From Patescibacteria group bacterium (GTDB lineage Bacteria; Patescibacteriota; Microgenomatia; UBA1400; PJMF01): DNA of 64,000 nt. Made by a program: the position numbers and the translations under genes. Location: NCBI GenBank assembly GCA_049322575.1, contig JBMORQ010000027.1, forward strand, positions 9,092 to 73,091, read 5' to 3'. A model generated the notes under the pieces. It did not search any database. It was not told the origin of the DNA and saw nothing but the letters and a program-made list of their open reading frames with translations. Of this stretch, positions 5,450-47,769 are shown one piece after another; within the stretch, counting starts at the first letter, position 1, and the number at the start of each line of letters is the position of its first letter.

Positions 5450-5469
5450 ATTTTGACCAAGACTTTGAT

Positions 5470-30715: not shown

Positions 30716-32146
30716 TCATTTTTTTAAAAGAATGATTTGTAGTTTTTCTGTGCAGTGGTATTCCTCCCCAACCGAGGATTGCCCAAAAAGAGTCAACTCA
30801 TTGTAAGCAGTTTTGCCATGTTCATATTTTGAGTCATCCACCACCACCGCCATTTGTCGGCTTTGATCTTGATTGTCCTCAATATTCAACACTTTACAAC
30901 CGGCCTCACGCATTAAGAAACGATGCTCAGGGGCATTGTGGTAGGGGAGAATACCAGATTGCATGCTGACATACAGTGGTTGCCGGTTTTTGTCACAAAA
31001 ATCCCGATAACAAGTTTGCATATCAGCCACTGTGCGACGAGCTGGCAAAAAATATCGTTTAGTAAAAATCGGCAAAAGCCACAAAAGCGACAAAAGTGCA
31101 ACAAATAGCACAAGCTGCAACGGCAGCAAAGCCATAGTCATAATTAATAGACTCATCAAGCCAAAAATATAGTGTGATTCAATATTGAAAGGCAAAATAA
31201 AAGTTAAGACAAAGCAAATTAATGAAGCCAATGACAGAGAAAGTAAAGACCTGAATTGAGCGTGTTGTTTCCTTTTCCAATAAATCTGCAATCCAACAAC
31301 GATTAAAGCCATTAGCAACAAAGAAATTACCACCCCGACCCAACCTTTATAACCGACCAAATATCCCTCCAATGTCATCATTTTTCCCCAGAAACCAATG
31401 TCTACTTGCATAAGCGTTTGTCCCTCAATTAGCAACTTGGTTAAAACAAATTTATGTCTAAGCTCAAAAAATATAGTTGGCAAATTTAGCAACAAACCCG
31501 CCACTGAAGTTGCCACAACAACCAACCAGGTTTTTTTGCGCCAAAAAAACATCCCGACTAAAAAGAGCGACGCAACTGCCGGCAAAGCAGAATAATTAAA
31601 AGAAATAGCCGCTGCAACTCCCAGAGAGAAAGCCGTCAAATTTTTCCAATTCAACTGATGCCTCATCTCCAAAAAGGCAAAGCTAGCGATAATCATAAAT
31701 AGCAAGACAAAAGATGGATTCCAAACAAATCGATGTTGAATAATTGCTTGCGGTTGAAGAGTAACCAGCAATCCAACCAACCACAAACTCACCAACTTAG
31801 TCTTATCATTTCTATAAATCCAAATGCCAAAAAGAAAGGCGAGCAAATAACAAAAAATCACAGTGTAAATTGAAGAAAAAGCCGAATGATTTGTTAACAA
31901 GAAAGCTGGAAACAGCAGATAAAAATAAAAAGCACTTTGATTGAAGGAAAAAGCGCTGGTTTGTGGTCCAAGTAAAGGTGGCTTGCCAGATTCGTACCAA
32001 TCTAACAAGACCGAGAAATCTCGGCCCATGTCGTTGAAGAAGAGTAGGGAGGTATGAATGCTATAAAGGCGAAAAACAAGGAAAACTGCAATAGGTAATA
32101 CGAATAGTAGTAATTTCCAATTATTGACGACTAATCTCATAACCAT
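30716..32146 (-). CDS. Polytopic membrane protein, putative GT-C-fold glycosyltransferase.
   Basis: 476 aa, more than 10 TM helices. Possible first-loop acidic motif FNDMGRD. C-terminal soluble domain. Confidence 0.55.
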   Translation of the reverse strand: MVMRLVVNNWKLLLFVLPIAVFLVFRLYSIHTSLLFFNDMGRDFSVLLDWYESGKPPLLGPQTSAFSFNQSAFYFYLLFPAFLLTNHSAFSSIYTVIFCYLLAFLFGIWIYRNDKTKLVSLWLVGLLVTLQPQAIIQHRFVWNPSFVLLFMIIASFAFLEMRHQLNWKNLTAFSLGVAAAISFNYSALPAVASLFLVGMFFWRKKTWLVVVATSVAGLLLNLPTIFFELRHKFVLTKLLIEGQTLMQVDIGFWGKMMTLEGYLVGYKGWVGVVISLLLMALIVVGLQIYWKRKQHAQFRSLLSLSLASLICFVLTFILPFNIESHYIFGLMSLLIMTMALLPLQLVLFVALLSLLWLLPIFTKRYFLPARRTVADMQTCYRDFCDKNRQPLYVSMQSGILPYHNAPEHRFLMREAGCKVLNIEDNQDQSRQMAVVVDDSKYEHGKTAYNELTLFGQSSVGEEYHCTEKLQIILLKK

Positions 32147-34347: not shown

Positions 34348-35637
34348 TCATTTAACAAAACGTTTCATGAAGTTGTCCAACAGATGACTAATACCTTTTT
34401 CAGGTGGAGTTTCATGCTGCAGGTTTGTTAGAAGCTCATAAGTTTTGTAACTTAAGTATCTAGCCTCATTTGCTGTCTGCTGTAAATTTGCGATCAGTCT
34501 CTCGTTTCTCTTAACACTAGCAATCGTTTCCACCCAACTAGAGTCATCTCGTGGTTCACTAATGCTATTCATCTTTGAACAAAAACAGTCCACTGCGTCG
34601 CCATCCAGATTGTAATAAACTTTTTTTGATACGACTTGCCAAGCCTGCTCATATTTTTTCTTGTCTGTTTTAATATCTGAAATCATTCCATTTAGCTCGC
34701 TAATGTTAGTGTCATCGATATGGACTGAAAGTTTAAAAACTTCATCGATTAATTTGTAAAATTGCAAATTTTTCTGATTGATTAGAAAGATGAGAGGTTT
34801 CTTAGTCAGCAGCGCCTCAAAAGTCATACTACTAACATCCAAGAAGAAGGCATCACTACCTCTTAATAGTTCCAGATTGTTGACACTACCCTCGAATGAT
34901 CCACCGTAAACAACAATATTCGATCTGGACTGGCTCAATTCTCGATATAAATCTACTATGTATTGAGGAGTGCTACCATGCAGTTTCACGATAAGTAAAA
35001 AGTCTGAATCGATATTTTTAGCAACTTCCAAACCAAGTGAGTCAACTGTTGTGTCACCAAAAAATGTCGGGAAATATGTAAAAACTTTTTTATATTTTCC
35101 TGGATAGAAAGATTTTATTTTGCGCTTGGCACTACTTACATCTTTGTCAGACGTATTAATAACATCATCGTTTTTTGTCTGACCGATTTGCCATAGTTTC
35201 CGGCTATCAACAGCCCGTTCGAGCAATAGTGACTCCTGATGTGGTCCGAGCGACGTAATGAAATCATAGCAGTTAAGCAAGGCGACTCTAGATGGTAAAA
35301 ACCAGCCAGTTTTCAAGCTTATACCATGAAACAACATAACCTTTTTCAGTGAGTAGAGAGCAGGAACAATATTATAAGACTCGAAAAAAAATATCCATCC
35401 GCTACGTCTGTTCAGAAAATCAATGGTCAAAGGAATATTGTGAGGCATGAACTCTGAGTTGTCGTCATCACCTACCAAACGATCCAACATCATGACTGGC
35501 AGTCCCACTTTCTTACACTCGCTATACACTTGTTCAGTCACCACCACGAAAGTGCCGCCTAATCTTCTATACAGCGGGAGTGCTTGCGATAAGTGGTGAA
35601 AAACATTACCTAAGAAAAAGTATATTTCCTCTTTCAT
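34348..35637 (-). CDS. TagF/TagB-like CDP-polyol:polyol-phosphate phosphotransferase (teichoic-acid-type polymerase/primase family).
   Basis: 429-aa GT-B-like protein. C-terminal half has the TagF-type arrangement (FYPGKYKKVFTYFPTF...KLHGS...). Translationally coupled (4-nt overlap) to the CDP-ribitol synthase gene. Confidence 0.55.
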   Translation of the reverse strand: MKEEIYFFLGNVFHHLSQALPLYRRLGGTFVVVTEQVYSECKKVGLPVMMLDRLVGDDDNSEFMPHNIPLTIDFLNRRSGWIFFFESYNIVPALYSLKKVMLFHGISLKTGWFLPSRVALLNCYDFITSLGPHQESLLLERAVDSRKLWQIGQTKNDDVINTSDKDVSSAKRKIKSFYPGKYKKVFTYFPTFFGDTTVDSLGLEVAKNIDSDFLLIVKLHGSTPQYIVDLYRELSQSRSNIVVYGGSFEGSVNNLELLRGSDAFFLDVSSMTFEALLTKKPLIFLINQKNLQFYKLIDEVFKLSVHIDDTNISELNGMISDIKTDKKKYEQAWQVVSKKVYYNLDGDAVDCFCSKMNSISEPRDDSSWVETIASVKRNERLIANLQQTANEARYLSYKTYELLTNLQHETPPEKGISHLLDNFMKRFVK

Positions 35638-36983
35638 TCTTTCCTTATATCAATAACTTGTCCAGTAACTTGAGAAAAAAGCACAGAAAGAGATTGCTCA
35701 GCAACAGTCTCGGCATCAAGCAATAGTTTCTTGTCCTCATTGGGAAAATTCTTTTGCCTCATCGGTGTGTCGGTCCTTGAAGGACAAATAATATTGACGT
35801 GAATATCGTCTTCATATAACTCATCAGCCAATGCTTGTACAAAGTTAACAAGAGCAGATTTTAAAGAGGAGTAAATTGCATATCCAGCGCGACCCCTAGT
35901 GTATGAGCTCGAGGAGAAAAACAATAAATGACCACCTCTGTTCAGGTAGTCGATGGCTGTCTTGGCTAGCATTATTGTTCCTGTGTAGTTGATGTTGACC
36001 TGTTCTCGAACTTCTTTTTCCTCCTGATCCTTAAAATTCTTATGTACCAAAATACCAGCGGTGATTATCACTGCATCAAACATACCCAATTTTTTGTGCA
36101 CACTCTCGAGAGCATGCTTAACTAATTGGCCATCACTAATATCGACACCATTTGATCTGGAAAAGCCACTCACTTTTGCTCCGTTTTCTTTACAAATATC
36201 ATAAATCGCCTTACCTATACCACTAGAATGACCGACAATAATAATTGTTTTATCCTGTAACAGTTCTTTACGTAAAGATCCAACATATGTTGATCGAAGC
36301 TGAAATATTTTGTCGGCAATGTGTATGTCTAAGGGGTAGGTGACCTTCATGTTCAAATCATCCCCCATTACGACATATACCTTCGATCCACAGTAACGAA
36401 TCACCAGGCCACAGTCATCCGTAACTGAGTAATCATTGTTTTCCTCAGCTAGCTGGTGAGCCTTCATAATTACGCGAAAAATGAAACCCTGTGGAGTTTG
36501 TCCCCTCATGTATGAAGAACGGTCAGGAATTTTTTCAATGTATCTATCCTTAACTTTTATCAGGGTATCGGCGGATGGAATTGCCACATCAACCGCTTCA
36601 TTGGCATCCAGGGCAGCGATCATTTCGTTGATGATTCTCTCAGATACGAAGGGCCTAACAGCATCATGTATCAGCACATAATCATCCGGAGATGCATTGA
36701 GAGATCTAAGAGCAATTTTTGATGACTCCTGGCGCGTAGACCCTCCAACCACAACTCTTATCCTTTGTAAGCCTTTTTCTCTGATGAATGACCTCACAAA
36801 ACCTTCATTCTCTGCATCGGTTACCAATACAACATCGTCGATCTGAGAGTGCCCAAGGAAAGCCTTAAGAGTGTGGAAAAATATTGGCTCTCCAGCCAGC
36901 TTGATGTACTGCTTGAAGGTTCCTTCTGACTTAAAACGTCCTCCTGATCCAGCCGAAAGTATTATTGCGTGAATTTTCATCAT
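35634..36983 (-). CDS. Bifunctional CDP-ribitol synthase-like enzyme: N-terminal IspD/TarI-type cytidylyltransferase fused to a C-terminal TarJ-type SDR reductase.
   Basis: N-terminus IHAIILSAGSGGRF is an IspD/TarI-like nucleotidyltransferase motif. C-terminal SDR has GHSSGIGKA (TGxxxGxG-like) and YxxxK (YSSLKSAL). Start is set at the internal Met; TAAAAT -10 lies 7 nt upstream. Confidence 0.7.
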   Translation of the reverse strand: MMKIHAIILSAGSGGRFKSEGTFKQYIKLAGEPIFFHTLKAFLGHSQIDDVVLVTDAENEGFVRSFIREKGLQRIRVVVGGSTRQESSKIALRSLNASPDDYVLIHDAVRPFVSERIINEMIAALDANEAVDVAIPSADTLIKVKDRYIEKIPDRSSYMRGQTPQGFIFRVIMKAHQLAEENNDYSVTDDCGLVIRYCGSKVYVVMGDDLNMKVTYPLDIHIADKIFQLRSTYVGSLRKELLQDKTIIIVGHSSGIGKAIYDICKENGAKVSGFSRSNGVDISDGQLVKHALESVHKKLGMFDAVIITAGILVHKNFKDQEEKEVREQVNINYTGTIMLAKTAIDYLNRGGHLLFFSSSSYTRGRAGYAIYSSLKSALVNFVQALADELYEDDIHVNIICPSRTDTPMRQKNFPNEDKKLLLDAETVAEQSLSVLFSQVTGQVIDIRKE

Positions 36984-37136
36984 TTTTTCAATTTTTAAAA
37001 CTAAATCATGGTAGCATATAGCAATCTCAAAACGAAATGACCTGTTTAGAGTCCAACAAAACAAATTAGAGGTTGCCAAATCAAGCTAACAATCTTTCAA
37101 CCAACTGCTAAGATTGCTTTTTTGATATATTAATCT

Positions 37137-38264
37137 TTAGCTACTTGAATGAATCGTCTCCCGCTCTAGTAGATGTTCAATTTGCTCCTCTGTTAAGGTG
37201 ATAAACTCCGATGGTCTCACTGACCGATCGTCTATGGTAAAGGCACTGGCATAAGGCTTGCCAAATTTTATCCCATCGAATGGAACCCCATGTCTCCGTA
37301 GCCAAGATAAGGTAACTGCCCCAACATCCTTTACAACTGAAGACTCATCATTGTTATGAGTCTTCATCCTTCGTGCTGTATGAAGAACAATTGTGTACCC
37401 CAACTCCTTATACTGTCTGAGTTTGTTTATTACAGCGGTGTTTGGTCGTTTTTTATTATATTTCGTGGTAGTATTGTCTTCAATCGTTATTGTGTTGTCT
37501 ATGTCAACAACCAAGGTTTTGTTTAACAAATTATCCCTTTTCATCTTTTTGTTACTAGTTCTCCAATAGCGTGATATTTGCTCTGGGGTTCCCATGGGTT
37601 TAAATAATTTTAAACGATCAATAACAACCCGATATCCATCATGGATATAGTCCATGTATAAGGGTGCAACAAAAAACTCATTGTTAACAGGACGCTCCAA
37701 TGCTCTTTTAGCATAGCTAAAAAAAAGCTCAGAATCTCTGAAAAAGTAGAATCCAACCGTTGCCCATGGAGAGATCCTCTTTTTCTCTTGGATGCTTATC
37801 ACTTCGTCTTTTCTATTTATCTTGCAGAAAGACCATGCGTCACCTGGTTGGCGCGAACATGGAATTATGCCCTCAATAGCTTTATCACTCATTAAATTTA
37901 TCAGAGTCGGACTCTGGAAATAGCTATCACAGTTATATATTGCTACTGAGTTTGATTTATTCATAAATTTTTCAACAACAACGGCCGTTTCCAATTGCCC
38001 CCTGGTTTGACCCATCAGCTCTATCCACTTCACATCATTAAATGGCAGCGAATCCTCGACTCTCTGCTGAAGTTTCCTCTTAATCTGATGGGATTTTTGC
38101 GAAATGATAAATAACTCATCATCGTGAAAAATTGGCAAAGACTCAATAGACCATTCAAGCAATGATTTGCCTCGCAAATTTATAAGTGGCTTGTGCAAAT
38201 GAGGTATCAATTTTTTAAATCTAGTACCTTCTCCAGCTGCACATAAAATGTATGTCACAGCCAT
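37137..38264 (-). CDS. Sugar-phosphate nucleotidyltransferase (LicC/MurU-like NTP-transferase) fused to a HAD-family phosphatase domain.
   Basis: N-terminus ILCAAGEGTRF is the G-x-G-T-R NTP_transferase signature. The C-terminal domain starts VVDIDNTIT (HAD DxDxT motif). Confidence 0.65.
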   Translation of the reverse strand: MAVTYILCAAGEGTRFKKLIPHLHKPLINLRGKSLLEWSIESLPIFHDDELFIISQKSHQIKRKLQQRVEDSLPFNDVKWIELMGQTRGQLETAVVVEKFMNKSNSVAIYNCDSYFQSPTLINLMSDKAIEGIIPCSRQPGDAWSFCKINRKDEVISIQEKKRISPWATVGFYFFRDSELFFSYAKRALERPVNNEFFVAPLYMDYIHDGYRVVIDRLKLFKPMGTPEQISRYWRTSNKKMKRDNLLNKTLVVDIDNTITIEDNTTTKYNKKRPNTAVINKLRQYKELGYTIVLHTARRMKTHNNDESSVVKDVGAVTLSWLRRHGVPFDGIKFGKPYASAFTIDDRSVRPSEFITLTEEQIEHLLERETIHSSS

Positions 38265-39736
38265 TTCATTCCTTTCTTGAACAAGTGCATGGCTTGAACA
38301 AATTGAGCTGACATGTGAGATAAACTATCTTGATGTAGAGGAATCATGCTTAAAAATAAAGTCGCTTCGAGAAGCCGTAGCTCTCTGATACTAATCCCAT
38401 TTTTTTCGACAAATTTGGTAAAAATCGAAGCTACCTCAAAATCTTGGAATTCTGGTTTGTTAAAATGCAAAGCAATTCCTTGTTGATCAAGTTGTAAAGT
38501 AAACATATCTGACATGATGTAATCATAGTTGCCAAGAAATGAATGAGATAGTTTGCAAATGTCATATATCTGTGGACGATAGGTCTCATCGATAGATTTG
38601 TTCCAGCCTCTTGGATCAATTAGCTTGAGTTGTTTTGACGCTGTGTCAAACATAATATTTGAGGCACATAGATCTCCATGAGAGAAATGTAATTCATTTC
38701 TACTTTTTTTCTTTACAATTTTCTCAACCGAGAAAAGAAGTTGGTCACAAAAATCATCGTAAGAACCAAAACCCTCAAGTTTTGCCAAAATCTCCAAACG
38801 ATCAATCTCCATCAATTTTTTTGTTTCTTGGATTCTTTTTCTTACTTTATCAACAAATAAAGAATGCATTTGCTCCCTGTAAACAACCCCATCAACCTTT
38901 TTTTTCGGAGCTGTGTCAAGACAATCTTGTATTTTTTCTAGAAAGTCTCTAAAGACTTCCTCTTTTTGAAAAGACCCATTTTTGAACAACACTGCTGCAT
39001 CAAAGGAGAAAATTTTTTCAACCTGATACGAAGCAGTTTGAGAGTCTTTGTAAAACACTCCCACATGAGGAAAAAAAGGTCTCAGTGAAGCAGGCACATT
39101 GGAAAGAAAGTTATACTCTGCCTCCATTTTATCAGTCTTAAATGATTGTTTTACAAAATAATAACAATTATCCACAGAAATGCTATTAAAATATCTTTTA
39201 TCGAGGTTCTGATTGAAAAGTAATATCGAATCAGTTGGATTCTCTAAATCCAACATCGATTGAGTTAAATCAACATCTATTGATTCTCTTTGTAAATCTA
39301 CCAATAGCATCTCATCGGAGTCTCTCTTTCTCAGAACTTCGAGATAGGGTACCGAAAAGATATATGGTTCTTCTAACCTCATCAGCTCATTTTTAAAAAA
39401 GGTTTTCTCGCTAATAGCAGCGGCTTTTTTTATTGCAAATTTTATTTTGTTCTCTCCGATGGGAAAAAAACGAGCGCTGTAATATATTAAGTTTGTATTT
39501 GATAAATCACCCTGGTAAATGAAACCATCGCTGATCGATTTATAGAGTTCCTTCCAGGTTACAACCTTGTCTGTCGTTAGTACAACATTGCGAGCTTCGA
39601 TGCCAAGTTTATCGATCAGGGTTTCAACATATTTTTTCTTACCTAATACTATCTCTGAATAGTTACTTACCCCAAGTTTACCTGATAAAAAGGAATTTGT
39701 AGAAAAACTTGTATTAATTATGTAAATTGTGTTCAT
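38255..39736 (-). CDS. APH/choline-kinase-fold small-molecule kinase (LicA/AmgK-like) with a long N-terminal extension.
   Basis: The C-terminal region has the Brenner motif HGDLCASNIMFD and downstream IDPRG. The N-terminal roughly 250 aa are of unknown fold. Confidence 0.6.
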   Translation of the reverse strand: MNTIYIINTSFSTNSFLSGKLGVSNYSEIVLGKKKYVETLIDKLGIEARNVVLTTDKVVTWKELYKSISDGFIYQGDLSNTNLIYYSARFFPIGENKIKFAIKKAAAISEKTFFKNELMRLEEPYIFSVPYLEVLRKRDSDEMLLVDLQRESIDVDLTQSMLDLENPTDSILLFNQNLDKRYFNSISVDNCYYFVKQSFKTDKMEAEYNFLSNVPASLRPFFPHVGVFYKDSQTASYQVEKIFSFDAAVLFKNGSFQKEEVFRDFLEKIQDCLDTAPKKKVDGVVYREQMHSLFVDKVRKRIQETKKLMEIDRLEILAKLEGFGSYDDFCDQLLFSVEKIVKKKSRNELHFSHGDLCASNIMFDTASKQLKLIDPRGWNKSIDETYRPQIYDICKLSHSFLGNYDYIMSDMFTLQLDQQGIALHFNKPEFQDFEVASIFTKFVEKNGISIRELRLLEATLFLSMIPLHQDSLSHMSAQFVQAMHLFKKGMKWL

Positions 39737-40610
39737 GACGATTCAGCTTTTGAATATTTCTTGTAAAGAATACTATAAGTATGCAGAAACAGATAAAAAC
39801 GAAAGCATAATAGATCGAACTGTATTGATTATTATACTGCAAACCAAAGTTATTGATAACATTGTCCAATACAAAAGGGTATGCCTGATCAATTCCCGTT
39901 GACGTGATGGTCATCACAGCATATAACTCAGTAACCCAGCCTAAAACGGTTAAAGAAAGCATTAAAAAAATCTTTTCCGCACTATTAATCCCTATTTCTT
40001 TAAATATCTTTTGTAAATGGCTAATTGCCAAAACAAGGTAATATGACAAACTTGAATGCTTTTTTCCTACCATATAAATCAAAAAGATTGAGAGTATCTT
40101 GGGCAATAAAACAATACCAAACCAAATAAATACTCCCAACAAAAGAGAAATTGTAGAGTTGGCTCTTAACGTACTCGTGCTCCCCGTGACAGCTTGTAAA
40201 AACAGGGGCGGTAACAGGATGATAAGATCGAAAAAACGGATGTAAATCATTACAGCAATAGTCTTCAAAAGGCAACTTTTGCAGTAACTACTAACTAATG
40301 CGACTAGACCAAAGTCTTTAATTAAGGGAAGCGTTACGTTGCCAAAAGAAGCTGACACAAACTGAAAAAAGATGATATTTTTTAGACCAACCCCTCTTAC
40401 TCCCATCAGCAACCAAATCCTTGCGGCACGAAACACGTGCGACAACAGATACAACAAAACAGAAAAGAACAATAGTTTAAAATTTGATTGGTTAACATTG
40501 AGCAATAAGTAGAAGATTGCCCACAAAAAATATACCGACAACAAAATCATCAAAAGTGGATGGGAGTTGGAACCATTGCGCTTGTGATCAGACATAGTAT
40601 TACTGTTCAT
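39714..40610 (-). CDS. Polytopic membrane protein, UPF0104 / lysylphosphatidylglycerol-synthase-TM-like (flippase-like).
   Basis: 298 aa, about 8 TM helices. Of the type commonly encoded next to DPM1-like GT2 enzymes. Overlaps both neighbours. Confidence 0.5.
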   Translation of the reverse strand: MNSNTMSDHKRNGSNSHPLLMILLSVYFLWAIFYLLLNVNQSNFKLLFFSVLLYLLSHVFRAARIWLLMGVRGVGLKNIIFFQFVSASFGNVTLPLIKDFGLVALVSSYCKSCLLKTIAVMIYIRFFDLIILLPPLFLQAVTGSTSTLRANSTISLLLGVFIWFGIVLLPKILSIFLIYMVGKKHSSLSYYLVLAISHLQKIFKEIGINSAEKIFLMLSLTVLGWVTELYAVMTITSTGIDQAYPFVLDNVINNFGLQYNNQYSSIYYAFVFICFCILIVFFTRNIQKLNRHEHNLHN

Positions 40611-41403
40611 AAACTAGGATTGAAAAATATTGCTTTAACGGTTTACCATTCATTTTTGGAAAGATATCAGAAGGCGCGACAAAATATCGAGCGAACAAAC
40701 CGAGAATATGCATACCCTGCTTAATTACTTTGGCATTACTGACTTGATCATCCTCTCTCCAAGTTATCGGGAAGAAAGCGAATACTGATTTTGTGTATAT
40801 TGTGAACAACAACAAATATACATTAAACGTCAAATCATCGGGAAAATAGTCAAAACGGCACTTCTTAAGAAATGTCACTTTATACATGTTTAATCCAGAT
40901 CCTGTATCGGTGATTTTTGATTGTGTAACCATAGAACACACTAAGTTAACAAGATAATTCCCATAAATTCGATATCTTGAATAACCACTTACGACTGACC
41001 GTTTATCAAACCTCGAACCGAGTAATGATGAAAAATTTCGATAAGATCCATCTGAGAGAATACTCAGAAGATCTTCAATATCAGCCTGATCGTCACCATG
41101 CAGAGTTATCAAATAGTCGTAGTTATTGTTAATTGCATAGTTAAAAGCCACCTTATGTGAGCCACCCAAATTGTAATTTGCGTTGTTCTGTAAAACTGCA
41201 ACTGGTTTTTTTAGATTTCTTGCAGACCTTATGGCTGCTGGGAGAGTCTTGTCTTGGCTCCTGTTCTCTACGATTAATATACCAGAAAGATAACTAAGTG
41301 CCCTACTAGATGACAACTTCTTTAACACTCTCACAATTTGTGTTTCGCAATTGTAAGCAGGGATGAACAATAGAATTGAGTCTTTTTTTTCTTTACTTTT
41401 CAT
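40600..41403 (-). CDS. Glycosyltransferase family 2, polyprenyl-phosphate sugar synthase (DPM1-like).
   Basis: ILLFIPAYNCETQI...D-x-D (LHGDDQAD). Start adjusted to the internal Met to remove a 200-nt overlap. Confidence 0.7.
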   Translation of the reverse strand: MKSKEKKDSILLFIPAYNCETQIVRVLKKLSSSRALSYLSGILIVENRSQDKTLPAAIRSARNLKKPVAVLQNNANYNLGGSHKVAFNYAINNNYDYLITLHGDDQADIEDLLSILSDGSYRNFSSLLGSRFDKRSVVSGYSRYRIYGNYLVNLVCSMVTQSKITDTGSGLNMYKVTFLKKCRFDYFPDDLTFNVYLLLFTIYTKSVFAFFPITWREDDQVSNAKVIKQGMHILGLFARYFVAPSDIFPKMNGKPLKQYFSILVYEQ

Positions 41404-42850
41404 CTCTATATTCCTTAACAGTGAATAGTTCTCCTTGTTTCCAGGTGCAGAATGGTAAAGAAACCACATCATTTTCATCTTTCGGGAGTCGTATTTGATT
41501 ATCCAACTCCGATGGTTTCCAAGGCATTGATAATACTCTTGCATGACCTTCTTGAAGAACAACAGAAAAAACTGGCCAAGTCCATAACCACTCATAACGA
41601 TTCTCGCTTAGAGTATCCAAATTAATCCTAGTTGTTTTATCTGCATTCAAGATTTGCTCGGTCGAAGACACGTAAAATCTTCTCCATCTGATGTTGTGAG
41701 ACATTTGCCAAAAACTGTGGAACAGTAGCATGATCGATAACACAAAAATGATTTGAGTATTGTGCACATATTTTGCGAAAAATTTCCTTGGCAAAAATAC
41801 TAATAGAGAAATAATAACTGATGCAACTGTAATCAGCACTCTCAAATCAAACTCACTTTGAGGAAACTGTCCATGTCTTGAAACCATGATGCACAAATGA
41901 ATTGTAAAAATCGGCACAAGCAGCAATGGAAGAATCAAATCAATAACAAACTTTCTCACTCTCATCTGCCGCTTCGTCTTTAACATCCGATTAATTATTA
42001 CGAAAAGGGCAACAAAAAAACCAAAGACAGAATATAGCAGGTTTGTTCTCTTCAAGTAGTAATCGAATGCGCCCATAATTTGAAATATTAAATTAATATA
42101 TCCTGAAGTCTGAGTTGCCACTGGATGTGAGACACCCCACCAAAAAGAATATGTCATTACACCCGCATATGTTGAAGCCAACAAAAGAAAGAATTTGTCT
42201 CTCTTCTTCAGATATCTAAAAATTGAATGAAGTGCGAATACCGGCGCAATGAATAAAGCCGTTTCATGACTTCTGAAAAGCAGCAATGAGAAAGAAAACA
42301 AAGGTATTCTTACGTCGTGGCCGGAATCAAGCATTATCGTGCAAGCAACTACCAATGATAGTATCGCAAAAAAACCAATAGCTGGATTAATGATGAATAT
42401 TGTGGAGGGGATAATAAAAACAATAAACAAAAAGAGGATTGCCAATGCCTCACCATACAACCTTTTTTTCGCCAAAAAAAACGTCGCGAAAAAAACCAAA
42501 AGAAATGGAAGAATAAAAACAGCTCCATCATACAGATAACCAAGCTCAGCATATCCAGTGATACCAAAAAATCTTCCCAGATTCATAGGAAACTGGTTTA
42601 TCAGATTAACAAAAAGTCTCTGGTGCTTTCCATCATCACTAAAGCCGTTGACTAAAGCGCTGACAAAAAAGAAAGAGCCGTCAGCATACATCGCTCTGTG
42701 TACAATTGTCGAGTGAAGTAATGAAATGAGATACAAAAGAGACGAGAATGCAAACAATCCAACGGTGGAAAAGTACACTCCCTGGGCGAGCAGACCCTCT
42801 CTTGAACCGAGGAATTGAGAAATTTTTTTCATAAAAAAAACAAATCTCAT
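41393..42850 (-). CDS. Large polytopic membrane protein, putative GT-C-type glycosyltransferase / polysaccharide polymerase.
   Basis: 485 aa, more than 12 TM helices. Confidence 0.5.
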   Translation of the reverse strand: MRFVFFMKKISQFLGSREGLLAQGVYFSTVGLFAFSSLLYLISLLHSTIVHRAMYADGSFFFVSALVNGFSDDGKHQRLFVNLINQFPMNLGRFFGITGYAELGYLYDGAVFILPFLLVFFATFFLAKKRLYGEALAILFLFIVFIIPSTIFIINPAIGFFAILSLVVACTIMLDSGHDVRIPLFSFSLLLFRSHETALFIAPVFALHSIFRYLKKRDKFFLLLASTYAGVMTYSFWWGVSHPVATQTSGYINLIFQIMGAFDYYLKRTNLLYSVFGFFVALFVIINRMLKTKRQMRVRKFVIDLILPLLLVPIFTIHLCIMVSRHGQFPQSEFDLRVLITVASVIISLLVFLPRKFFAKYVHNTQIIFVLSIMLLFHSFWQMSHNIRWRRFYVSSTEQILNADKTTRINLDTLSENRYEWLWTWPVFSVVLQEGHARVLSMPWKPSELDNQIRLPKDENDVVSLPFCTWKQGELFTVKEYRDEK

Positions 42851-45198
42851 TATGCGTGATTAATAACGTTTGCAATGATCTCGCCGTAATTTCGCGCAAC
42901 CTTGCTCCAACTACAGTGCTGTTCAAAATATTTTAGGCCATTATGTGACAGAGTTTTACGTAAAAAACTGCCACTAATCATCTGTTTGAAAACTTTAACT
43001 GGATCTCTTTCATCGATTATAAGAACCTCTTTTCCCGCTACTAAGTTCCAGCCTCTAACACCATCCTTATTCGCAATAATGGGTAAGCCGTACGATAGAT
43101 AGTCTGCAACTTTGACACTCGATCCACCCCCTCCCTTTGTTAGAGAAATAGCGATATCTGAACAAGAAAATATAATTTTTTTTGTTGTCTCGTTGACTAC
43201 TCCGGCAAAATGAACATTTTCCGGTTTATCACCAGAGTAAACAGTGCCAGCTCGACCAACAACCACAAAATCAATCTCAGGTAATTTTGGTGCTAGTGTA
43301 TTGCACAAATACTTCAGCCCCAACATATTGGGCATGTGGTCGCTTGCAATGAATACACAAACAAATTTTTTACCAAATAATTTCGTCTTCCATTTGCGCC
43401 TCAAAGCATTTTGTATATTTGAGTCTTCTTCCTTTGAAAAACCATTATTTACTACATATACGGATCCATTCAATTTTGAAAAATACTCCTTATCTTTTTG
43501 ACTTACACATACCACAGCTTCAGAATTTCTGGCTGCACTGTTTTCAAGTTTCTGCACCATTTTCAGCAAATTATCTTTAAAAGGGTGTGCCTCAAATATC
43601 TTTTCCTTTAGTTGATATTCACAATTGTGGCTCTCAAGAATAATTTTTTTATTAAGTTTTTCCGCTATGGGATATAAGTAGGGGTGACTAATTATTACTA
43701 ACTTTGCATAAATGGAGAGATCTCTTGCAAACTGCATATATAGTTTGTTTTTCTTAGCCATAAAAGAACTGACAACATCTGCAACACTCACATTAGCAAG
43801 GTTTCCATACCTTTCATCGTAGGAAATATGCTCCAGTGTCTTGGGAATACTTATTTCAATGAAATTATCATTTATGTATTTTTTCCTTAAAATCCCACGG
43901 TCGTTAAAACATAAATAAATGATTTTAAATCTATTTCCAGCTGAAAGGGCAGAGTAGAGACCATTGATCCTTGAAGCTCCTCCGTTGTTTGGGTTGGAAA
44001 TACTAAAATCATTTAGCACCAAAAGTGTCTCTCTATTATCATCCCTTTTTACTTGATTGATTTGCTCTCTTGCAAATTTTGCAATACTTCTCCAGGAAAA
44101 ATTCTTCCTGACATAATCCGATCCTAATTTGGATATATGCTTCTTAAGATCTTTGTTTTGTATCAAGCTTCTCAGATCCTCTGCAAAGTTTTTTTGATCT
44201 GAAACTACCACATGCTGACCACTTGTTAAATCCAACCCCCTCGCACCGCACTTAGTTGTGACGGTTGGTATACCCAAGGCTAAGTACTCAATCATTTTTA
44301 AATTGGTTCCTGATCCGTGAAACATAGGATTAATGGCAACATCAGTAGTTGCCAATAACTCATCTTTTCTGTCCTGATCAACTTCCCCTTCTAAAATTAC
44401 GTTTGGTGCCTTTTTCTTTATTGCACTACAACATAAGCCAGCAATCCGAAAGACGCAGTCTGTAAGAGATGGTGCCAGTTTTTCATTAATGAAGAGAACA
44501 GCCTCTAAGTTTGGTGGGTGGGCACTTCCAATAAAAAGGACCTCATTTCGTCGGACATCTCTTTTTCTATTTCCGTATTCGGCATCGTCAAAACCATTCT
44601 TAACCAAAACAATTCTTTTTTCATCTATTTCATACTCACGTAGAAAGCCATTTTTTTCCTCTTCAGAAATGGCAAAAACTAAATCTGATTCTTTAACTAA
44701 AACCCTCTCTAAAGACTCAACATAAGCCATACAGCGAATATCTTTCAATAAATAGCTAGCCATCTCTTTCTCTAGATTATAGCTATTGTAAATATGAAGC
44801 TTGGTGTCTATACCAAGAAACACATCAAAATCTGACATATAAGGCGAGTCATGAATAATGATGTTTGATTTGCTGTATAGTCTAAGAAATATTTCAAAAT
44901 ACTCATCATAGTAGTGCGCACTCAAGGCGCTTGAAATGCCAGACAATTCTTTACCAGCTTTCTTCTGAAAAAAATAGTTATAGATCTTTAAGAAATAGCT
45001 ATTCTGAGGAACCTTGTATTCCCTAAAATGCTCAGAATACTTTTCTCGCTTGGTTTTTTTATGGCTATGGGTATAGGAAAGAAGGGTGACATCGTAATAA
45101 CTACTCAAATACTTATAAAAATAGTAGTAACGAATCTCGCCTCCACTAGTTGGTGGCAACCTTGTCGAATAGTAGTTGATCACAAGAAGTTTTTTCAC
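42850..45198 (-). CDS. Tandem-domain GT-B glycosyltransferase (two GT4-like modules).
   Basis: 782 aa. Two successive Rossmann GT-B halves with E-x7-E-like regions (VAINPMFHGSGTNLKMIEYLALG; SLTKGGGGSSVKVADYLSYG). Confidence 0.7.
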   Translation of the reverse strand: MKKLLVINYYSTRLPPTSGGEIRYYYFYKYLSSYYDVTLLSYTHSHKKTKREKYSEHFREYKVPQNSYFLKIYNYFFQKKAGKELSGISSALSAHYYDEYFEIFLRLYSKSNIIIHDSPYMSDFDVFLGIDTKLHIYNSYNLEKEMASYLLKDIRCMAYVESLERVLVKESDLVFAISEEEKNGFLREYEIDEKRIVLVKNGFDDAEYGNRKRDVRRNEVLFIGSAHPPNLEAVLFINEKLAPSLTDCVFRIAGLCCSAIKKKAPNVILEGEVDQDRKDELLATTDVAINPMFHGSGTNLKMIEYLALGIPTVTTKCGARGLDLTSGQHVVVSDQKNFAEDLRSLIQNKDLKKHISKLGSDYVRKNFSWRSIAKFAREQINQVKRDDNRETLLVLNDFSISNPNNGGASRINGLYSALSAGNRFKIIYLCFNDRGILRKKYINDNFIEISIPKTLEHISYDERYGNLANVSVADVVSSFMAKKNKLYMQFARDLSIYAKLVIISHPYLYPIAEKLNKKIILESHNCEYQLKEKIFEAHPFKDNLLKMVQKLENSAARNSEAVVCVSQKDKEYFSKLNGSVYVVNNGFSKEEDSNIQNALRRKWKTKLFGKKFVCVFIASDHMPNMLGLKYLCNTLAPKLPEIDFVVVGRAGTVYSGDKPENVHFAGVVNETTKKIIFSCSDIAISLTKGGGGSSVKVADYLSYGLPIIANKDGVRGWNLVAGKEVLIIDERDPVKVFKQMISGSFLRKTLSHNGLKYFEQHCSWSKVARNYGEIIANVINHA

Positions 45199-45725
45199 TT
45201 TGAATTGACTAGTACATTGCTCTTTTTGGTTCCTCTAAATATCTTCCTTTGCAACCAACCAAAAAAATAATGAGTGAAACTTGATAATTTTACTACACCA
45301 TTTTTTTTCCCCAAATTTTCAGCTGATAATAAACTCTTGATTAAAAAAACTTGTGGATGGTATTCTCTGTAGAACATTGACTGCATAACTTTTTCCGACA
45401 CGTCCTTTGGCATGCTCTTTCCATATATATATGAATAAACTTTTTTCGGAAAGGAAATTGGATCACTATTTAAAAGTTCCTCAACATCGATTCTTTTTCT
45501 ATTTGTTCTAGAAAAATGATAGCGGATAATTTTATCAACTGTTTTTTTCACTTTGATGTGAATTGTTGACAAATAATAAATGAGACATTCGTATGTCAAC
45601 TCATTACTTTTTTTCTCAATAGCATTACTAGCAAAAACCTTTTCATCCACGTAATCAACCAGGTCAAAAATCTTTTCGTCATTTTTTCTATTTAAATCTT
45701 GAAGAGCGGTCTCAATTTTTGTCAT
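45195..45725 (-). CDS. Hypothetical protein.
   Basis: 176-aa ORF coupled to the GT4 genes. No motif recognised. Confidence 0.45.
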   Translation of the reverse strand: MTKIETALQDLNRKNDEKIFDLVDYVDEKVFASNAIEKKSNELTYECLIYYLSTIHIKVKKTVDKIIRYHFSRTNRKRIDVEELLNSDPISFPKKVYSYIYGKSMPKDVSEKVMQSMFYREYHPQVFLIKSLLSAENLGKKNGVVKLSSFTHYFFGWLQRKIFRGTKKSNVLVNSK

Positions 45726-45770
45726 GAGCTATTAAATTATGGTTGGCACAAATTACGAAAATACAAATTA

Positions 45771-46967
45771 TTAACAATTTTGCACGCTAGTAAGAAATAC
45801 TTTAGCACATTTTGAAAAATTATATGAATCAAGAATGTCATATTGCTTGTAGATGATTTTCTCAAGCATGGACGGATCATCGAGAATTCTTACTATATGA
45901 GCAAAGATGTCATTTTCCGAAGACACGGCCATGTCATTCTTAAGAATGCTATAGTTAAATGGAGATTCTTCGTGAGACAAAACCAGACAACCATGAAAAA
46001 TCGCCTCGAAGTTTACAATTCCCAGGCTTTCTTCTTTTGATGGATTGATAAAAACATCTATGTTCTGAAAAACTCCTGCCTTTTCATCCGTCGAAAAATT
46101 ATAGACAAACTCTGTCTGAGAAAATGATTTTCTCATTTCTTGTTGAATTTCAAGGTATGTATTTGTCTTAACTCCAGCCAATACTAATCGTAATTTCACG
46201 CCCTTGTTCGAGAAGATTTTTTTGTATTTTCTAAAAAAATTTGAAATCAATTCCAAATTTTTCCTTCTCGTTATCTGTCCGACATAGCCAATGGTAAACG
46301 TTTTGTTTGAAAAATTGTTTATTCTGCGCTTGATAACAGAAGCAATCTTCCTTTTTTGCTGATCAACATCTTTTAATTTATAGGGAGAAAAGGATAAATG
46401 CACAATTTTTCCGCTGGAAACTTTATATGTTGATTTCAATTCTCGTTGTTCTTTTTCTGACAAAACGAGTATTTTGCTGGATAAATCGAGTGTTTTTTGA
46501 AACAAATAGTTACCATTGTAGTAAGAAACGTTGTGGTAAGCGGGAAGCGCCACTAGCTTTTTGTGAAACTTTTTGGCAAAACACGCCGCATCAACAAACA
46601 ATCTTGTAGGCATCCCAGCAGCTATTATGAGATCTGAGCTGCGAATGATGTCACAAGCCTTGTCTGAATAAGACAAAATTGGACCAAAATACCACGGAGA
46701 AAAAATTGAAAACTTTCTCACAAGATTACCAAACAACTTATTAGCTATCTTTTGTTGAGTTTTTTTAATCGGTAGTCTGATTACATTTTTTTCATACCTG
46801 TTGATCGGTACGAAGTTTGAAAAAGTTTTGTAGCTATCAAGAGTCTCACCTTGTCCAGTGATAACAACCACCTCATGATCTGCCAACATCTCCACCAGCT
46901 GCTGTGACAGGTACTCAAGTCCGCCTTTTGCTGGCGGATAGCAATGTACAAAATATACTATCTTCAT
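45771..46967 (-). CDS. Glycosyltransferase family 4.
   Basis: N-terminus KIVYFVHCYPPAKGGLEY. GT-B C-terminal domain (FINPSKEESLGIVNFEAIFHGCLVL). Confidence 0.8.
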   Translation of the reverse strand: MKIVYFVHCYPPAKGGLEYLSQQLVEMLADHEVVVITGQGETLDSYKTFSNFVPINRYEKNVIRLPIKKTQQKIANKLFGNLVRKFSIFSPWYFGPILSYSDKACDIIRSSDLIIAAGMPTRLFVDAACFAKKFHKKLVALPAYHNVSYYNGNYLFQKTLDLSSKILVLSEKEQRELKSTYKVSSGKIVHLSFSPYKLKDVDQQKRKIASVIKRRINNFSNKTFTIGYVGQITRRKNLELISNFFRKYKKIFSNKGVKLRLVLAGVKTNTYLEIQQEMRKSFSQTEFVYNFSTDEKAGVFQNIDVFINPSKEESLGIVNFEAIFHGCLVLSHEESPFNYSILKNDMAVSSENDIFAHIVRILDDPSMLEKIIYKQYDILDSYNFSKCAKVFLTSVQNC

Positions 46968-47019
46968 GATAAAAAAGCTTTGTTTTTATTATGGTCTTGT
47001 CTGGGTATACCCTACGAAC

Positions 47020-47769
47020 CTATGTCTTCACAGACACTTGCTTTAAATACACATCTACCACATCCTTACTTTCTCCCCATCCCTTCATGATCGAGTTCTC
47101 GATATACATCGCCTTGTCTGTAAATTTCATCACTGCATCCAAGGAATGGCTAACCAGCACAATGGTGACTCGCTTTCTCTTGAACTCGGCCAGTCTATCA
47201 AAACACTTGCGTTGAAACGCCTCATCACCAACTGCCAAAATTTCGTCAATCAGTAAGATTTCTGGGTTGCTGTGAACCGCCACAGCAAAAGCTAGCCGTA
47301 AATACATGCCTGATGAATAATGCTTAATCGGTTGATCTATAAAATCCCAGATATCAGCAAAGTCAACTATATCATTAACTTTGCTCTTAATTTCCTCGCG
47401 GGTCATACCGAGAATTACACCGTTCAAGAAAATATTTTCACGGCCAGTCAGCTCAGGATGAAATCCGGCACCGAGCTCTATTAGTGGAGCTATCCGACCA
47501 TTCATCTTGATCGAACCATTAGTTGGCTTAGTCACTCCGGCCATCAGTTTAAGTAGGGTTGACTTACCTGACCCATTTGGACCGATTATGCCGATTGTTT
47601 CGCCTTTTTTTACCTCAAAACTAACGTCATTCAATGCCCAGAATGACTCAATCGTTCTTTGCCCACCGAATAAAGCAGGGAGCAATTCTTTAAAAGTTCT
47701 CTGCTTCTGCTTGTGAAAGAGCTTCCACACATGGTCAACGGTAATGGCAACTTCAGACGACATCTGCAA
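47020..47769 (-). CDS. ABC transporter ATP-binding protein, TagH/Wzt/KpsT-type polysaccharide/teichoic-acid exporter.
   Basis: Walker A GIIGPNGSGKST, signature YSSGMYLRLAFA, Walker B LLIDEIL. Confidence 0.85.
   Translation of the reverse strand: MQMSSEVAITVDHVWKLFHKQKQRTFKELLPALFGGQRTIESFWALNDVSFEVKKGETIGIIGPNGSGKSTLLKLMAGVTKPTNGSIKMNGRIAPLIELGAGFHPELTGRENIFLNGVILGMTREEIKSKVNDIVDFADIWDFIDQPIKHYSSGMYLRLAFAVAVHSNPEILLIDEILAVGDEAFQRKCFDRLAEFKRKRVTIVLVSHSLDAVMKFTDKAMYIENSIMKGWGESKDVVDVYLKQVSVKT

Follow-up and report, generated by a model that had tools for sequence, protein, structure and literature searches.

Described systems with fructose-bearing glycans

Fructofuranose branches are found on the capsules of Escherichia coli K4, Pasteurella multocida types B and E, Haemophilus influenzae type e and Campylobacter jejuni HS:1, and the lipopolysaccharide (LPS) core of Vibrio cholerae contains fructose. 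In chondroitin engineering, KfoE is routinely deleted as "the fructosyltransferase". To our knowledge, an activated donor of fructose has not been described for fructose-bearing bacterial glycans, and the enzymology of the K4 and Pasteurella fructose-addition genes has never been worked out. A literature search on UDP-, CDP- or NDP-fructose and on fructose-2-phosphate found no bacterial donor pathway, and no open-access statement of fructose in the V. cholerae core was found.

The kfoE gene of E. coli K4 is genetically tied to the addition of β-fructofuranose to chondroitin, and its deletion leads to unfructosylated chondroitin (PMC7925653, PMC8858990). In P. multocida type B, BcbE, BcbF and BcbG are predicted to act in fructose side-chain addition; bcbE and bcbG mutants lose fructose, and bcbF mutants were unobtainable (PMC13552107). 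In C. jejuni, the capsule branches can consist of fructose, sorbose or xylulose (PMC9561416).

K4-type kps loci encode, in capsule region 2, a HAD phosphatase (126 aa), a 522-aa protein and a nucleotidyltransferase (NTase, 241 aa), and the 522-aa ORF is KfoE, as published kfoE deletion primers flank exactly that ORF. In the LPS core (wav) locus of V. cholerae, a HAD (PDB 1xpj), a 527-aa homologue of the kinase described below (HMM E-value 4e-62) and an NTase (PDB 4evw) are found together with WavE; 1xpj and 4evw are structural-genomics structures without assigned function. BcbF and EcbF from P. multocida types B and E define the NCBIfam family TIGR01689.

The two genes and the NTase::HAD fusion

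The window analysed here is a 64,000-nucleotide stretch from a Patescibacteria metagenome-assembled genome (MAG). Two ORFs on the minus strand of its glycan island, both with ATG starts, encode a 493-aa kinase (38255..39736) and a 375-aa NTase::HAD fusion protein (37137..38264). A sequence-only reading had described these two overlapping ORFs and quoted the motifs FSHGDLCASNIMFD...KLIDPRG, CAAGEGTRF and VVDIDNTIT from their products; the ORFs, an overlap of 10 nt and all the motifs were recovered. At the junction, the kinase stop codon TGA lies at 38257-38255 and the ATG of the NTase::HAD gene at 38264-38262, with AAAGGA ahead of this ATG within the 3′ end of the kinase gene, an arrangement which suggests that the two genes are translationally coupled. 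A promoter and terminator scan of the glycan island gave no excess over shuffled sequences. The structure models of the two proteins are confident, with pLDDT values of 94.1 and 93.5.

The first 240 residues of the fusion protein (37545..38264, minus strand) form the NTase domain, with its G-x-G-T-R loop at 38220..38237. It matches Pfam NTP_transferase (PF00483) with 26.6 bits (cutoff 21.2) and NTP_transf_3 with 30.7 bits (cutoff 27), and residues A10, G11, G13, R15, K25 and D113 are invariant in a 58-sequence alignment of the fusion protein. The structure 4evw was found by sequence (3.7e-11) and also ranked first in Foldseek (1.1e-17), ahead of the RmlA family. The domain is thus a member of the sugar-1-phosphate nucleotidyltransferases (PF00483, RmlA/GlmU-like). 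It had been considered beforehand that the NTase might belong to the GlmU/RmlA clade with a dedicated kinase elsewhere; the fold is indeed RmlA-like, with 4evw as its best match, but the partner kinase is adjacent and apparently coupled.

Residues 246-372 (37149..37529, minus strand) form a cap-less (C0) HAD phosphatase domain of 125 aa of the EcbF/BcbF type. HAD motifs I-IV (DxDxT, T/S, K and DD) are conserved, motif I being DIDNT at 37491..37505; D254, D256, T258, R298, D345 and D346 are invariant in the same alignment and K336 is present in at least 90% of the sequences. A degenerate linker, a possibility raised beforehand for this domain, is ruled out by these intact motifs. The best NCBIfam match is TIGR01689 (EcbF-BcbF; 7.4e-31, profile positions 2-122 of 126), at 106.7 bits, which is under the curated subfamily cutoff of 162; the window domain thus differs from BcbF in scoring below the family threshold, and BcbE and BcbG were compared by description only. 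Among PDB entries, the HAD matches V. cholerae 1xpj (2.5e-23) and 9iqw, a "Capsule biosynthesis protein" (3.6e-7). Weak matches were obtained to HAD-IIIA (the GmhB class) in NCBIfam and to PNKP and lipin LNS2 in Pfam, and the window protein also has a weak HddC match.

A kinase-fold homologue of KfoE

The C-terminal domain of the kinase protein (residues 176-493; 38255..39211, minus strand) is a small-molecule kinase of the APH/choline-kinase fold, the fold search on the predicted model revealing a bilobal kinase. The family is invisible to Pfam: Choline_kinase (PF01633) was sub-threshold with 22 bits against a cutoff of 29, APH (PF01636) gave no match, and KfoE has no Pfam match whatsoever. 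When the kinase sequence was searched against the PDB, noise alone was returned, and the fold search was needed for the assignment. The motif set, H-x-D-x4-N with a downstream metal-binding Asp equivalent to that of DFG, is complete and invariant in a 69-sequence alignment. It comprises H353, G354, D355 and N360 in the catalytic loop H353-N360 (38657..38680) and the metal-binding D374 (38615..38617); K196, K203 and E207 are likewise invariant. The catalytic Asp and Asn, on which the earlier assignment as a kinase hinged, are therefore kept.

KfoE matches the kinase-domain HMM built from the window relatives with an E-value of 6e-54, and BLAST aligns it to the window kinase with 27% identity over 319 aa (8e-24). 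By this kinase-domain homology, together with the adjoining BcbF-type HAD and 4evw-type NTase, the window kinase is a predicted member of the KfoE family. E. coli K4 has the same three functions in adjacent genes, and KfoE itself consists of a pseudo-NTase and an APH-fold kinase with the HGDLCFSN...DPRG motifs; the HAD and NTase of K4 are 39% and 31% identical to the window domains, whereas the kinase reaches only 27%. The V. cholerae trio is related to a similar degree (HAD 40%, kinase domain 28%, NTase 23%). The HAD and the NTase are fused in the ORF after the kinase in the window, but are separate genes in K4 (in the order HAD, kinase, NTase) and V. cholerae. Both of these systems also differ from the window in having no DPM1-like glycosyltransferase or flippase-like partner. 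Assembly of the K4 capsule takes place in the cytoplasm and follows an ABC-transporter pathway, and the V. cholerae trio lies amid heptosyl- and Kdo-transferases of cytoplasmic core assembly.

A five-gene cassette with a DPM1-like glycosyltransferase

The window pair is the final part of a cassette that consists of a DPM1-like family-2 glycosyltransferase (GT2), an MprF-flippase-like membrane protein, the kinase, the HAD and the NTase. Kinase relatives amount to 1739 protein clusters at E ≤ 1e-30 and occur in at least 426 species genomes. Among 80 genomes sampled across many phyla for loci that contain a kinase relative, 52 have all five genes within 5 kb, mostly in that order and on the same strand. 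The kinase, HAD and NTase genes are mutually adjacent in most of the 80 genomes, most commonly in the order kinase, HAD, NTase, and at least eight loci are without a nearby HAD. Fusions join the parts in several ways: NTase-HAD (69 proteins), HAD-NTase, HAD-GT2 (in locus L005 and probably also in L048 and L083), GT2-kinase (P0062), and 21 NTase-HAD-kinase triple fusions, from which the pseudo-NTase domain is absent. Since 52 of the 80 loci carry all five genes and fusions connect their products, the cassette is best read as one pathway. The earlier idea that kinase, NTase and HAD make up one sugar-activation route on two polypeptides is thus borne out by adjacency, by fusions of the three in each pairwise combination and by the triple fusions.

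The first gene of the window cassette (40600..41403, minus strand) encodes a DPM1/GtrB-like GT2 of 267 aa that matches Pfam Glycos_transf_2. The ORF as called is 40600..41595, and the true start is probably M65, because homologues are 265-272 aa long and the longer ORF overlaps the upstream ORF by 200 nt. The window GT2 shares 50-55% identity with the GT2s encoded ahead of the kinase gene in loci L001 and L003; in 65 of 85 loci, the kinase has a GT2 of this family upstream, and identity across phyla is 36-49%. The window GT2 alone gave no match in the PDB, and a family profile was needed, whose top match was the Dol-P-Man synthase of Pyrococcus furiosus (5mlz, 1.6e-8), with ArnC and GtrB next; the profile also found non-lipid GT2 domains, those of chondroitin synthase and TarS. 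Like human DPM1, the window GT2 has no clear transmembrane segment.

Next to it, a polytopic membrane protein of 298 aa with about six hydrophobic segments (39714..40610, minus strand) represents a divergent LPG_synthase_TM (MprF flippase domain). It has no direct Pfam match, is 27% identical to its counterpart in locus L001 (E 1e-24), and aligns with the family that, in 74 of the 85 loci, is encoded immediately ahead of the kinase; PF03706 was matched by 24 of 33 aligned family members. Further away, the protein encoded at 48768..50588 (minus strand; Pfam PMT, 2.3e-8) is a PMT/ArnT-like GT-C membrane glycosyltransferase that may use the lipid-linked sugar on the extracytoplasmic side. In other cassette loci, GT87-type GT-C enzymes and GtrA proteins are close by. 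A lipid-linked step is suggested by the profile matches of the GT2 to Dol-P-Man synthase, ArnC and GtrB, by the GtrA, GT87 and PMT-like GT-C neighbours, and by the assignment of the membrane partner to LPG_synthase_TM.

The cassette resembles GtrA/GtrB/GtrV, DPM1-DPM3 and ArnC/ArnT in its GT2, putatively of the polyprenyl-phosphate type, with a small or polytopic membrane partner, its GtrA neighbours and its GT-C enzymes. Those systems use common NDP-sugars, whereas the cassette has a predicted, dedicated three-enzyme donor pathway in the operon, and its membrane partner is MprF-flippase-like, unlike theirs. Hundreds of genomes, spread over many phyla, link the trio to the GT2 and the flippase-like protein, unannotated and unrecognised by Pfam, and this assignment accounts for four consecutive genes in the glycan island of the Patescibacteria MAG. 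The sequence-only reading had passed over both cassette genes that lie upstream, had not recognised the N-terminal extension as a pseudo-NTase, and had missed the homology with KfoE, BcbF and the wav genes of V. cholerae.

Proposed pathway and the order of its steps

We propose that the trio is a three-step NDP-sugar route, probably to NDP-fructofuranose, whose product would be used by the GT2 on polyprenyl phosphate for extracytoplasmic decoration; taken as a whole, we hold this to be reasonably probable. The two ORFs would supply three activities of one pathway that leads from a sugar phosphate of central metabolism to a nucleotide-activated sugar: the APH-fold kinase would phosphorylate the anomeric hydroxyl, the BcbF-type HAD would strip the metabolic phosphate, and the NTase would join the sugar-anomeric-phosphate to an NTP. 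The DPM1-like GT2, two genes upstream of the kinase, would then load the sugar onto polyprenyl phosphate, and the membrane protein would anchor the GT2, flip the lipid-linked product, or both. Finally, the GT-C enzyme may use the lipid-linked sugar to decorate a surface polymer, which is probably the ribitol-phosphate glycan to which the neighbouring IspD-SDR and TagF-like genes point.

The order of steps that we infer resembles that of ADP-heptose synthesis, from sugar phosphate to sugar bisphosphate, sugar-anomeric-phosphate and NDP-sugar. It is favoured by the dominant gene order kinase, HAD, NTase and by the HAD-IIIA (GmhB class) match of the HAD, and a toxic bisphosphate intermediate would fit the unobtainable bcbF mutants. 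The ADP-/GDP-heptose pathway (HldE or HddA, GmhB, HldC/HddC) likewise combines an anomeric kinase acting on a sugar phosphate with a HAD-IIIA phosphatase and an NTase; its kinases are of the PfkB or GHMP fold rather than APH, and the cassette, which is without a GmhA isomerase, is not a member. A close alternative is the order of the sequence-only reading, with the phosphatase first and the kinase second.

The HAD might instead act last, the kinase making a bisphosphate, the NTase a phosphate-bearing NDP-sugar, the GT2 transferring a phosphosugar and the HAD dephosphorylating the lipid- or glycan-linked product. Such an order has precedents in the trehalose-6-phosphate and sucrose-6-phosphate synthase/phosphatase pairs, in the conversion of mycobacterial DPPR to DPR and in Bcs3 CrpP. 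The HAD-GT2 fusions, as well as the cap-less architecture with weak matches to PNKP and lipin LNS2, phosphatases that act on macromolecules or lipids, would fit a late step on a linked sugar phosphate equally well. However, fusion of the HAD to the NTase, which occurs in both orders, or a position between the kinase and the NTase is far commoner; the cap-less KdsC and GmhB act on small sugar phosphates; and the triple fusions are soluble proteins that do not contain the GT2. We therefore regard a HAD-last order as unlikely.

The identity of the sugar

The substrate is suggested by which glycans carry the trio. Fructose is favoured because it is the only sugar common to the K4, V. cholerae and P. 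multocida glycans that has no known activation route, although we know of no glycan composition for any organism with the five-gene cassette. D-Fructofuranose is accordingly the leading candidate in this organism, at a little less than an even chance. With fructose, the route would run from Fru-6-P to Fru-2,6-P2, Fru-2-P and NDP-Fru. The complete version, in which the cassette makes NDP-β-D-fructofuranose via fructose-2,6-bisphosphate and fructose-2-phosphate and then a polyprenyl-phosphate-linked fructose donor for extracytoplasmic decoration, is put forward tentatively, and we consider it rather doubtful in all its details together. If true, it would fill a long-standing gap, the donor pathway for fructosyl residues in bacterial capsules and LPS, and lipid-linked ketose donors would have a wide distribution that takes in Patescibacteria, Lachnospiraceae, Proteobacteria and some giant viruses.

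The specificity in the window could differ from that in K4 and V. cholerae, given that its kinase is only 27-28% and its NTase 23-31% identical to their counterparts. The same pathway logic might thus serve another ketose, such as sorbose, xylulose or sedoheptulose, or an aldose without a mutase route, to which the low identity of the kinase to KfoE (27%) and the ketose diversity of C. jejuni capsules (PMC9561416) lend some weight. Against this, HADs encoded in five-gene cassettes share 42-70% identity with that of V. cholerae (up to 70% for Roseibium), which argues for a single common phosphatase substrate, and the conservation of the GT2 across phyla (36-49%) also suggests one shared sugar. 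A different sugar is hence improbable in our view, and fructose is retained as the preferred substrate.

Function of the KfoE-like protein

The N-terminal part of the kinase protein (residues 1-175; 39212..39736, minus strand) had been noted as an uncharacterised extension of about 250 aa, with structure prediction suggested for it; the extension exists but is only about 175 aa long, and structure prediction revealed a nucleotidyltransferase fold. As this fold has lost the G-x-G-T-R loop, the domain is a catalytically dead pseudo-NTase. An active second NTase was rejected for want of conserved residues.

NTases and GT-A glycosyltransferases belong to one fold class, and it is conceivable that this N-terminal domain, of the nucleotide-diphospho-sugar-transferase fold, is itself catalytic and makes the KfoE-like protein a glycosyl (fructosyl) transferase. 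This is what the literature name "fructosyltransferase", given after knockout phenotypes, implies (PMC7925653, PMC8858990, PMC10609508), and in P. multocida only BcbE, BcbF and BcbG have been assigned to fructose addition (PMC13552107). But a knockout cannot separate donor synthesis from transfer, and the window cassette has a GT2 of its own. Moreover, no residue of the N-terminal domain is invariant among the 69 homologues, in contrast to the full kinase set of the C-terminal domain; its closest structures in the fold search are NTases and not GT2 enzymes; and the triple fusions dispense with it altogether. A transferase role is therefore quite improbable. If the complete fructose pathway set out above is true, KfoE would be reassigned from "fructosyltransferase" to anomeric kinase. 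The KfoE family, a kinase with a dead NTase domain, would together with the HAD and the true NTase make up a concrete three-step pathway.

LicA/LicC and AmgK/MurU/MupP likewise pair an APH-fold kinase with a subsequent NTase, and in the latter system the HAD phosphatase MupP works ahead of the kinase. The affiliation to phosphocholine activation or to MurNAc/GlcNAc recycling raised earlier is very improbable and was dropped, because the family models failed (Choline_kinase sub-threshold as above; LicC 1jyk at E 0.079 only; MurU, NF045761, with 23.9 bits where 250 are required, and over the N-terminal loop only; no match to AmgK or LicC models) and because the genomic partners and the glycan-island context differ. 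The trio sits in LPS core and capsule loci, and the cassette is partnered by the flippase-like protein and a sugar-transferring GT2. It is never partnered by peptidoglycan-recycling genes or by LicD, which is absent from the glycan island of the window as well as from related loci.

The pseudo-NTase domain of the proposed kinase probably serves as a docking module for the true NTase or as its regulator. GMPPA/GMPPB provide a precedent for a dead NTase-fold module partnered with a true NTase, although the GDP-mannose-sensing pseudo-enzyme there is a subunit of its own, whereas here it is fused to the kinase. PDB 7d74 is among the Foldseek matches of the window NTase.

Gene order and domain structure of the kinase and NTase::HAD proteins

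The kinase gene (38255..39736, minus strand, 493 aa) and the gene for a nucleotidyltransferase fused to a HAD phosphatase (NTase::HAD; 37137..38264, minus strand, 375 aa) are both present in the ORF listing and overlap by 10 nt, which confirms the observation made in the sequence-only reading; every motif quoted there was found. The kinase stop codon TGA lies at 38257-38255 and the NTase::HAD ATG at 38264-38262, with AAAGGA just before it. A membrane-protein gene (39714..40610) overlaps the kinase gene by 23 nt and shares a further 11 nt with the ORF called for a GT2 glycosyltransferase (40600..41595). From these serial overlaps, all four genes look translationally coupled. An identical protein, ACOZAN_03270, is on deposit as a hypothetical protein encoded on a 190-kb contig of a "Patescibacteria group bacterium" MAG. 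The GT2 call also overlaps the upstream 485-aa ORF (41393..42850) by about 200 nt, and its true start is probably M65 at 41403, since the GT2 homologues are 265-272 aa long.

The catalytic domains of NTase::HAD are real and intact. The protein clears Pfam NTP_transferase and NTP_transf_3, and in NCBIfam residues 249-369 match TIGR01689 best ("EcbF-BcbF capsule biosynthesis phosphatase"), at 106.7 bits, under the cutoff of 162. In sequence searches against the PDB, the HAD domain matches 1xpj (2.5e-23), a hypothetical protein of V. cholerae, and the NTase domain matches 4evw, a V. cholerae NDP-sugar pyrophosphorylase (3.7e-11). The HAD is also matched at 3.6e-7 by 9iqw, a recent 134-aa structure named 'Capsule biosynthesis protein'. 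Among 58 homologues, A10, G11, G13, R15 and K25 of the NTase loop are invariant, together with D113; in the HAD domain D254, D256, T258, R298, D345 and D346 are invariant, and K336 is kept in at least 90%. The AlphaFold model has a pLDDT of 93.5, and Foldseek places 4evw at the top, followed by the RmlA family.

With sequence models, the kinase yields no more than a Choline_kinase/APH match below threshold around its catalytic loop, and its sequence search against the PDB returned no match. Its catalytic domain is likewise real and intact, with H353, G354, D355, N360, D374, K196, K203 and E207 invariant among 69 homologues. In residues 1-180 no position is invariant among the same homologues. 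This region had been described as an uncharacterised extension, a description that needs correction, as it is a domain of about 175 aa with an NTase fold. The G-x-G-T-R motif is missing from it, and hhalign places NTSF-STNSF under CAAGEGTRF, weakly (E 9e-4). Relatives of 540-560 aa form a graded series, in which P0119 retains an intact loop (AGRGSR) and the loops of P0113 and P0120 are degenerate; even these longer relatives have a true NTase as a separate adjoining gene (loci L006 and L058). We read the N-terminal domain as a pseudo-NTase, by which the kinase may dock onto the NTase; a comparable pairing of an inactive NTase paralogue with an active one is known from GMPPA/GMPPB.

A five-gene cassette across genomes

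The kinase family comprises 1739 clusters at E<=1e-30 in a full-library profile search. A survey that took a single genome from each species recovered at least 426 loci, 80 of which were taken for analysis and searched with HMMs purpose-built for the four domains. Culturable carriers of the cassette include Roseibium aggregatum IAM 12614, Pseudobutyrivibrio ruminis AD2017, Lacrimispora xylanisolvens DSM 3808, Bartonella choladocola and Limnohabitans sp. T6-20. The prevailing layout is kinase, HAD (about 130 aa) and NTase (about 245 aa), adjoining and on the same strand. In 74 of 85 loci the gene immediately preceding the kinase encodes a membrane protein (about 286 aa), and in 65 loci a GT2 of about 253 aa is encoded upstream of that membrane-protein gene; the complete five-gene set falls within 5 kb in 52 of the 80 genome loci. 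Within the membrane-protein family, PF03706 (LPG_synthase_TM) is matched by 24 of 33 sequences; the window member (39714..40610) has no direct PF03706 match, though it aligns with the family. The GT2 family is highly conserved: its members are 36-49% identical to the window GT2, the mean column identity is 56%, and its profile finds the Dol-P-Man synthase 5mlz first, then ArnC and GtrB. Nearby genes include GtrA, GT87 and PMT-like GT-C.

The gene order varies among individual loci: GT2, 289-aa membrane protein, kinase, NTase::HAD and GtrA in L001; the reversed fusion HAD::NTase, GT2 and kinase in L003; NTase, an LPG_synthase_TM protein, a HAD::GT2 fusion and kinase in L005; and kinase, a free-standing 120-aa HAD and NTase in L006. 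Fusions tie the functions of the kinase-HAD-NTase trio and the GT2 together. NTase-HAD fusions number 69 proteins and NTase-HAD-kinase triple fusions 21, the latter without the pseudo-NTase domain; HAD-NTase, HAD-GT2 and GT2-kinase (P0062) fusions also occur.

Some triple fusions (P0202-P0227, 605-640 aa) are AT-rich, and the gene context of P0227 is giant-virus-like, with DUF5755, Glyco_transf_90 and many ORFans. Indivirus ILV1 encodes a 635-aa relative (BFVD), and two-domain NTase-plus-kinase proteins are found in phages (Tenacibaculum phage PTm1, Bacillus phage G gp311 and RB69 ORF052c).

At least eight loci (among them L013, L026, L034, L035, L049, L060, L062 and L081) carry kinase and NTase with no HAD within 5 kb, and such HAD-less cassettes occur, for example, in Nitrospirillum, Azospirillum and Geomonas. 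In these either the phosphatase is encoded elsewhere or the pathway begins from the free sugar.

Relation to fructosylation loci

The name of TIGR01689 derives from P. multocida EcbF and BcbF. The type B capsule of P. multocida is a GlcNAc-ManNAcA polymer with side chains of fructose and glycine, and BcbE, BcbF and BcbG had earlier been predicted to act in fructose addition; fructose is lost in bcbE and bcbG mutants, and bcbF mutants were unobtainable (PMC13552107, 2026).

A V. cholerae HAD 98% identical to 1xpj led to the LPS core locus, with the order WaaA, HAD126, 527-aa protein, 247-aa protein and WavE. The 527-aa protein matches the kinase-domain HMM at 4e-62, and the 247-aa protein is the 4evw NTase. 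By blastn, this V. cholerae DNA matches 124 of 5426 complete E. coli genomes. The match falls in a group 2 capsule locus whose region 2 is of K4 type, in the order galE/kfoA, 546-aa ORF, 686-aa GT2 (kfoC), IS3, 477-aa ORF, HAD126, 522-aa ORF, 241-aa ORF, UDP-Glc dehydrogenase and 446-aa GT2. The kinase HMM finds the 522-aa protein at 6e-54, and this protein is 46% identical to the V. cholerae 527-aa protein; the NTase HMM finds the 241-aa protein at 4e-38. The 241-aa gene (L089:13820-14545, NZ_CP049197.1) is labelled 'glycosyltransferase family 2 protein' in RefSeq; its product has a MAGMSSRF...PK loop and is a 4evw-type nucleotidyltransferase, and the label is probably a misannotation. Identity to the V. 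cholerae HAD is 42-70% for HADs from five-gene cassettes and 40% for the window HAD, and the kinases of all locus types share 25-36% identity with one another.

Primers published for deleting kfoE (PMC7925653, Supplementary Table 3) have exact matches flanking the 522-aa ORF, and KfoE is therefore the kinase homologue. KfoE is universally called a "fructosyltransferase" because its deletion yields unfructosylated chondroitin (PMC7925653, PMC8858990), a name taken from knockout phenotypes only. The protein (L089:12255-13823) has no Pfam match and bears a complete APH-fold kinase catalytic set, which suggests that it is misnamed. Candidates for the actual fructosyltransferase are WavE (L087:12692-13615), which adjoins the trio in the V. 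cholerae cytoplasmic-assembly locus, and KfoD and KfoB (L089:10400-11833 and 5039-6679), which lie beside the E. coli K4 trio and have no Pfam match.

The window pair is a distant member of the KfoE / BcbF / 4evw gene set, a set known from genetics, not enzymology. It differs from that set in that its NTase and HAD are fused into one protein and its trio sits within a five-gene lipid-linked-sugar cassette, of which no description was found in the literature.

Proposed pathway and sugar

The sequence-only reading had proposed a single small-molecule activation route modelled on LicA/LicC or AmgK/MurU/MupP. The pathway logic of one sugar-activation route stands; the named analogues do not, since by Pfam, NCBIfam and PDB matches NTase::HAD and the kinase fit neither family. 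The working logic is like that of HldE/GmhB/HldC and of MupP/AmgK/MurU, the pair being a family member of neither.

The trio probably makes an NDP-sugar. The kinase would phosphorylate the anomeric hydroxyl, the HAD would strip the metabolic phosphate, and the NTase would form the NDP-sugar. Anomeric phosphorylation is carried out by several APH-fold sugar kinases, such as NahK, AmgK, MtnK and maltokinase. The GT2 could then put the sugar on polyprenyl phosphate, and the flippase-like membrane protein and a GT-C enzyme may finish the extracytoplasmic decoration, probably of the ribitol-phosphate-type polymer for which the neighbouring IspD::short-chain-dehydrogenase fusion and TagF-like gene would code.

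In what order would these steps proceed? We lean, tentatively, to the heptose-like order of kinase, HAD and NTase, because it is the prevailing gene order, because the phosphatase would then act solely on a dedicated intermediate, and because a toxic bisphosphate would be in keeping with bcbF mutants being reported as unobtainable. The HAD::GT2 fusions suggest instead that the HAD acts late, and the phosphatase-first order of the sequence-only reading is a further alternative.

The trio-bearing glycoconjugates are the K4 capsule, the P. multocida B/E capsule (via BcbF) and the V. cholerae core, whose published structures contain fructose. To our knowledge, fructose is the only sugar common to these three glycans that has no known activation route, and it is proposed for that reason; for the window organism its chance of being the sugar comes close to even. 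The unexplained fructosylation of several capsules and LPS cores hereby becomes a set of direct enzyme assays.

The surrounding glycan island

Adjoining the pair is an IspD::short-chain-dehydrogenase fusion (35634..37079, minus strand; an ORF of 481 aa that probably starts at the MMKIH methionines), resembling bifunctional CDP-ribitol synthases (Bcs1, TarI-TarJ), followed by a TagF-like glycerol/ribitol-phosphotransferase (34348..35637, minus strand). Together, these genes hint that this Patescibacteria MAG encodes a polymer resembling teichoic acid.

Three ORFs inside or beside the island, 41393..42850 (485 aa), 30716..32146 (476 aa) and 45195..45725 (176 aa), have no Pfam or NCBIfam match. 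A 782-aa protein (42850..45198) has GT4 matches mainly over residues 14-376 and a weak, sub-threshold match at 702-773, the remainder being unassigned. The G+C content of the island (36001..48000) is 0.34-0.39, with a minimum of 0.345 at 38-40 kb, against 0.41-0.46 in the first 20 kb, which is compatible with horizontal acquisition.
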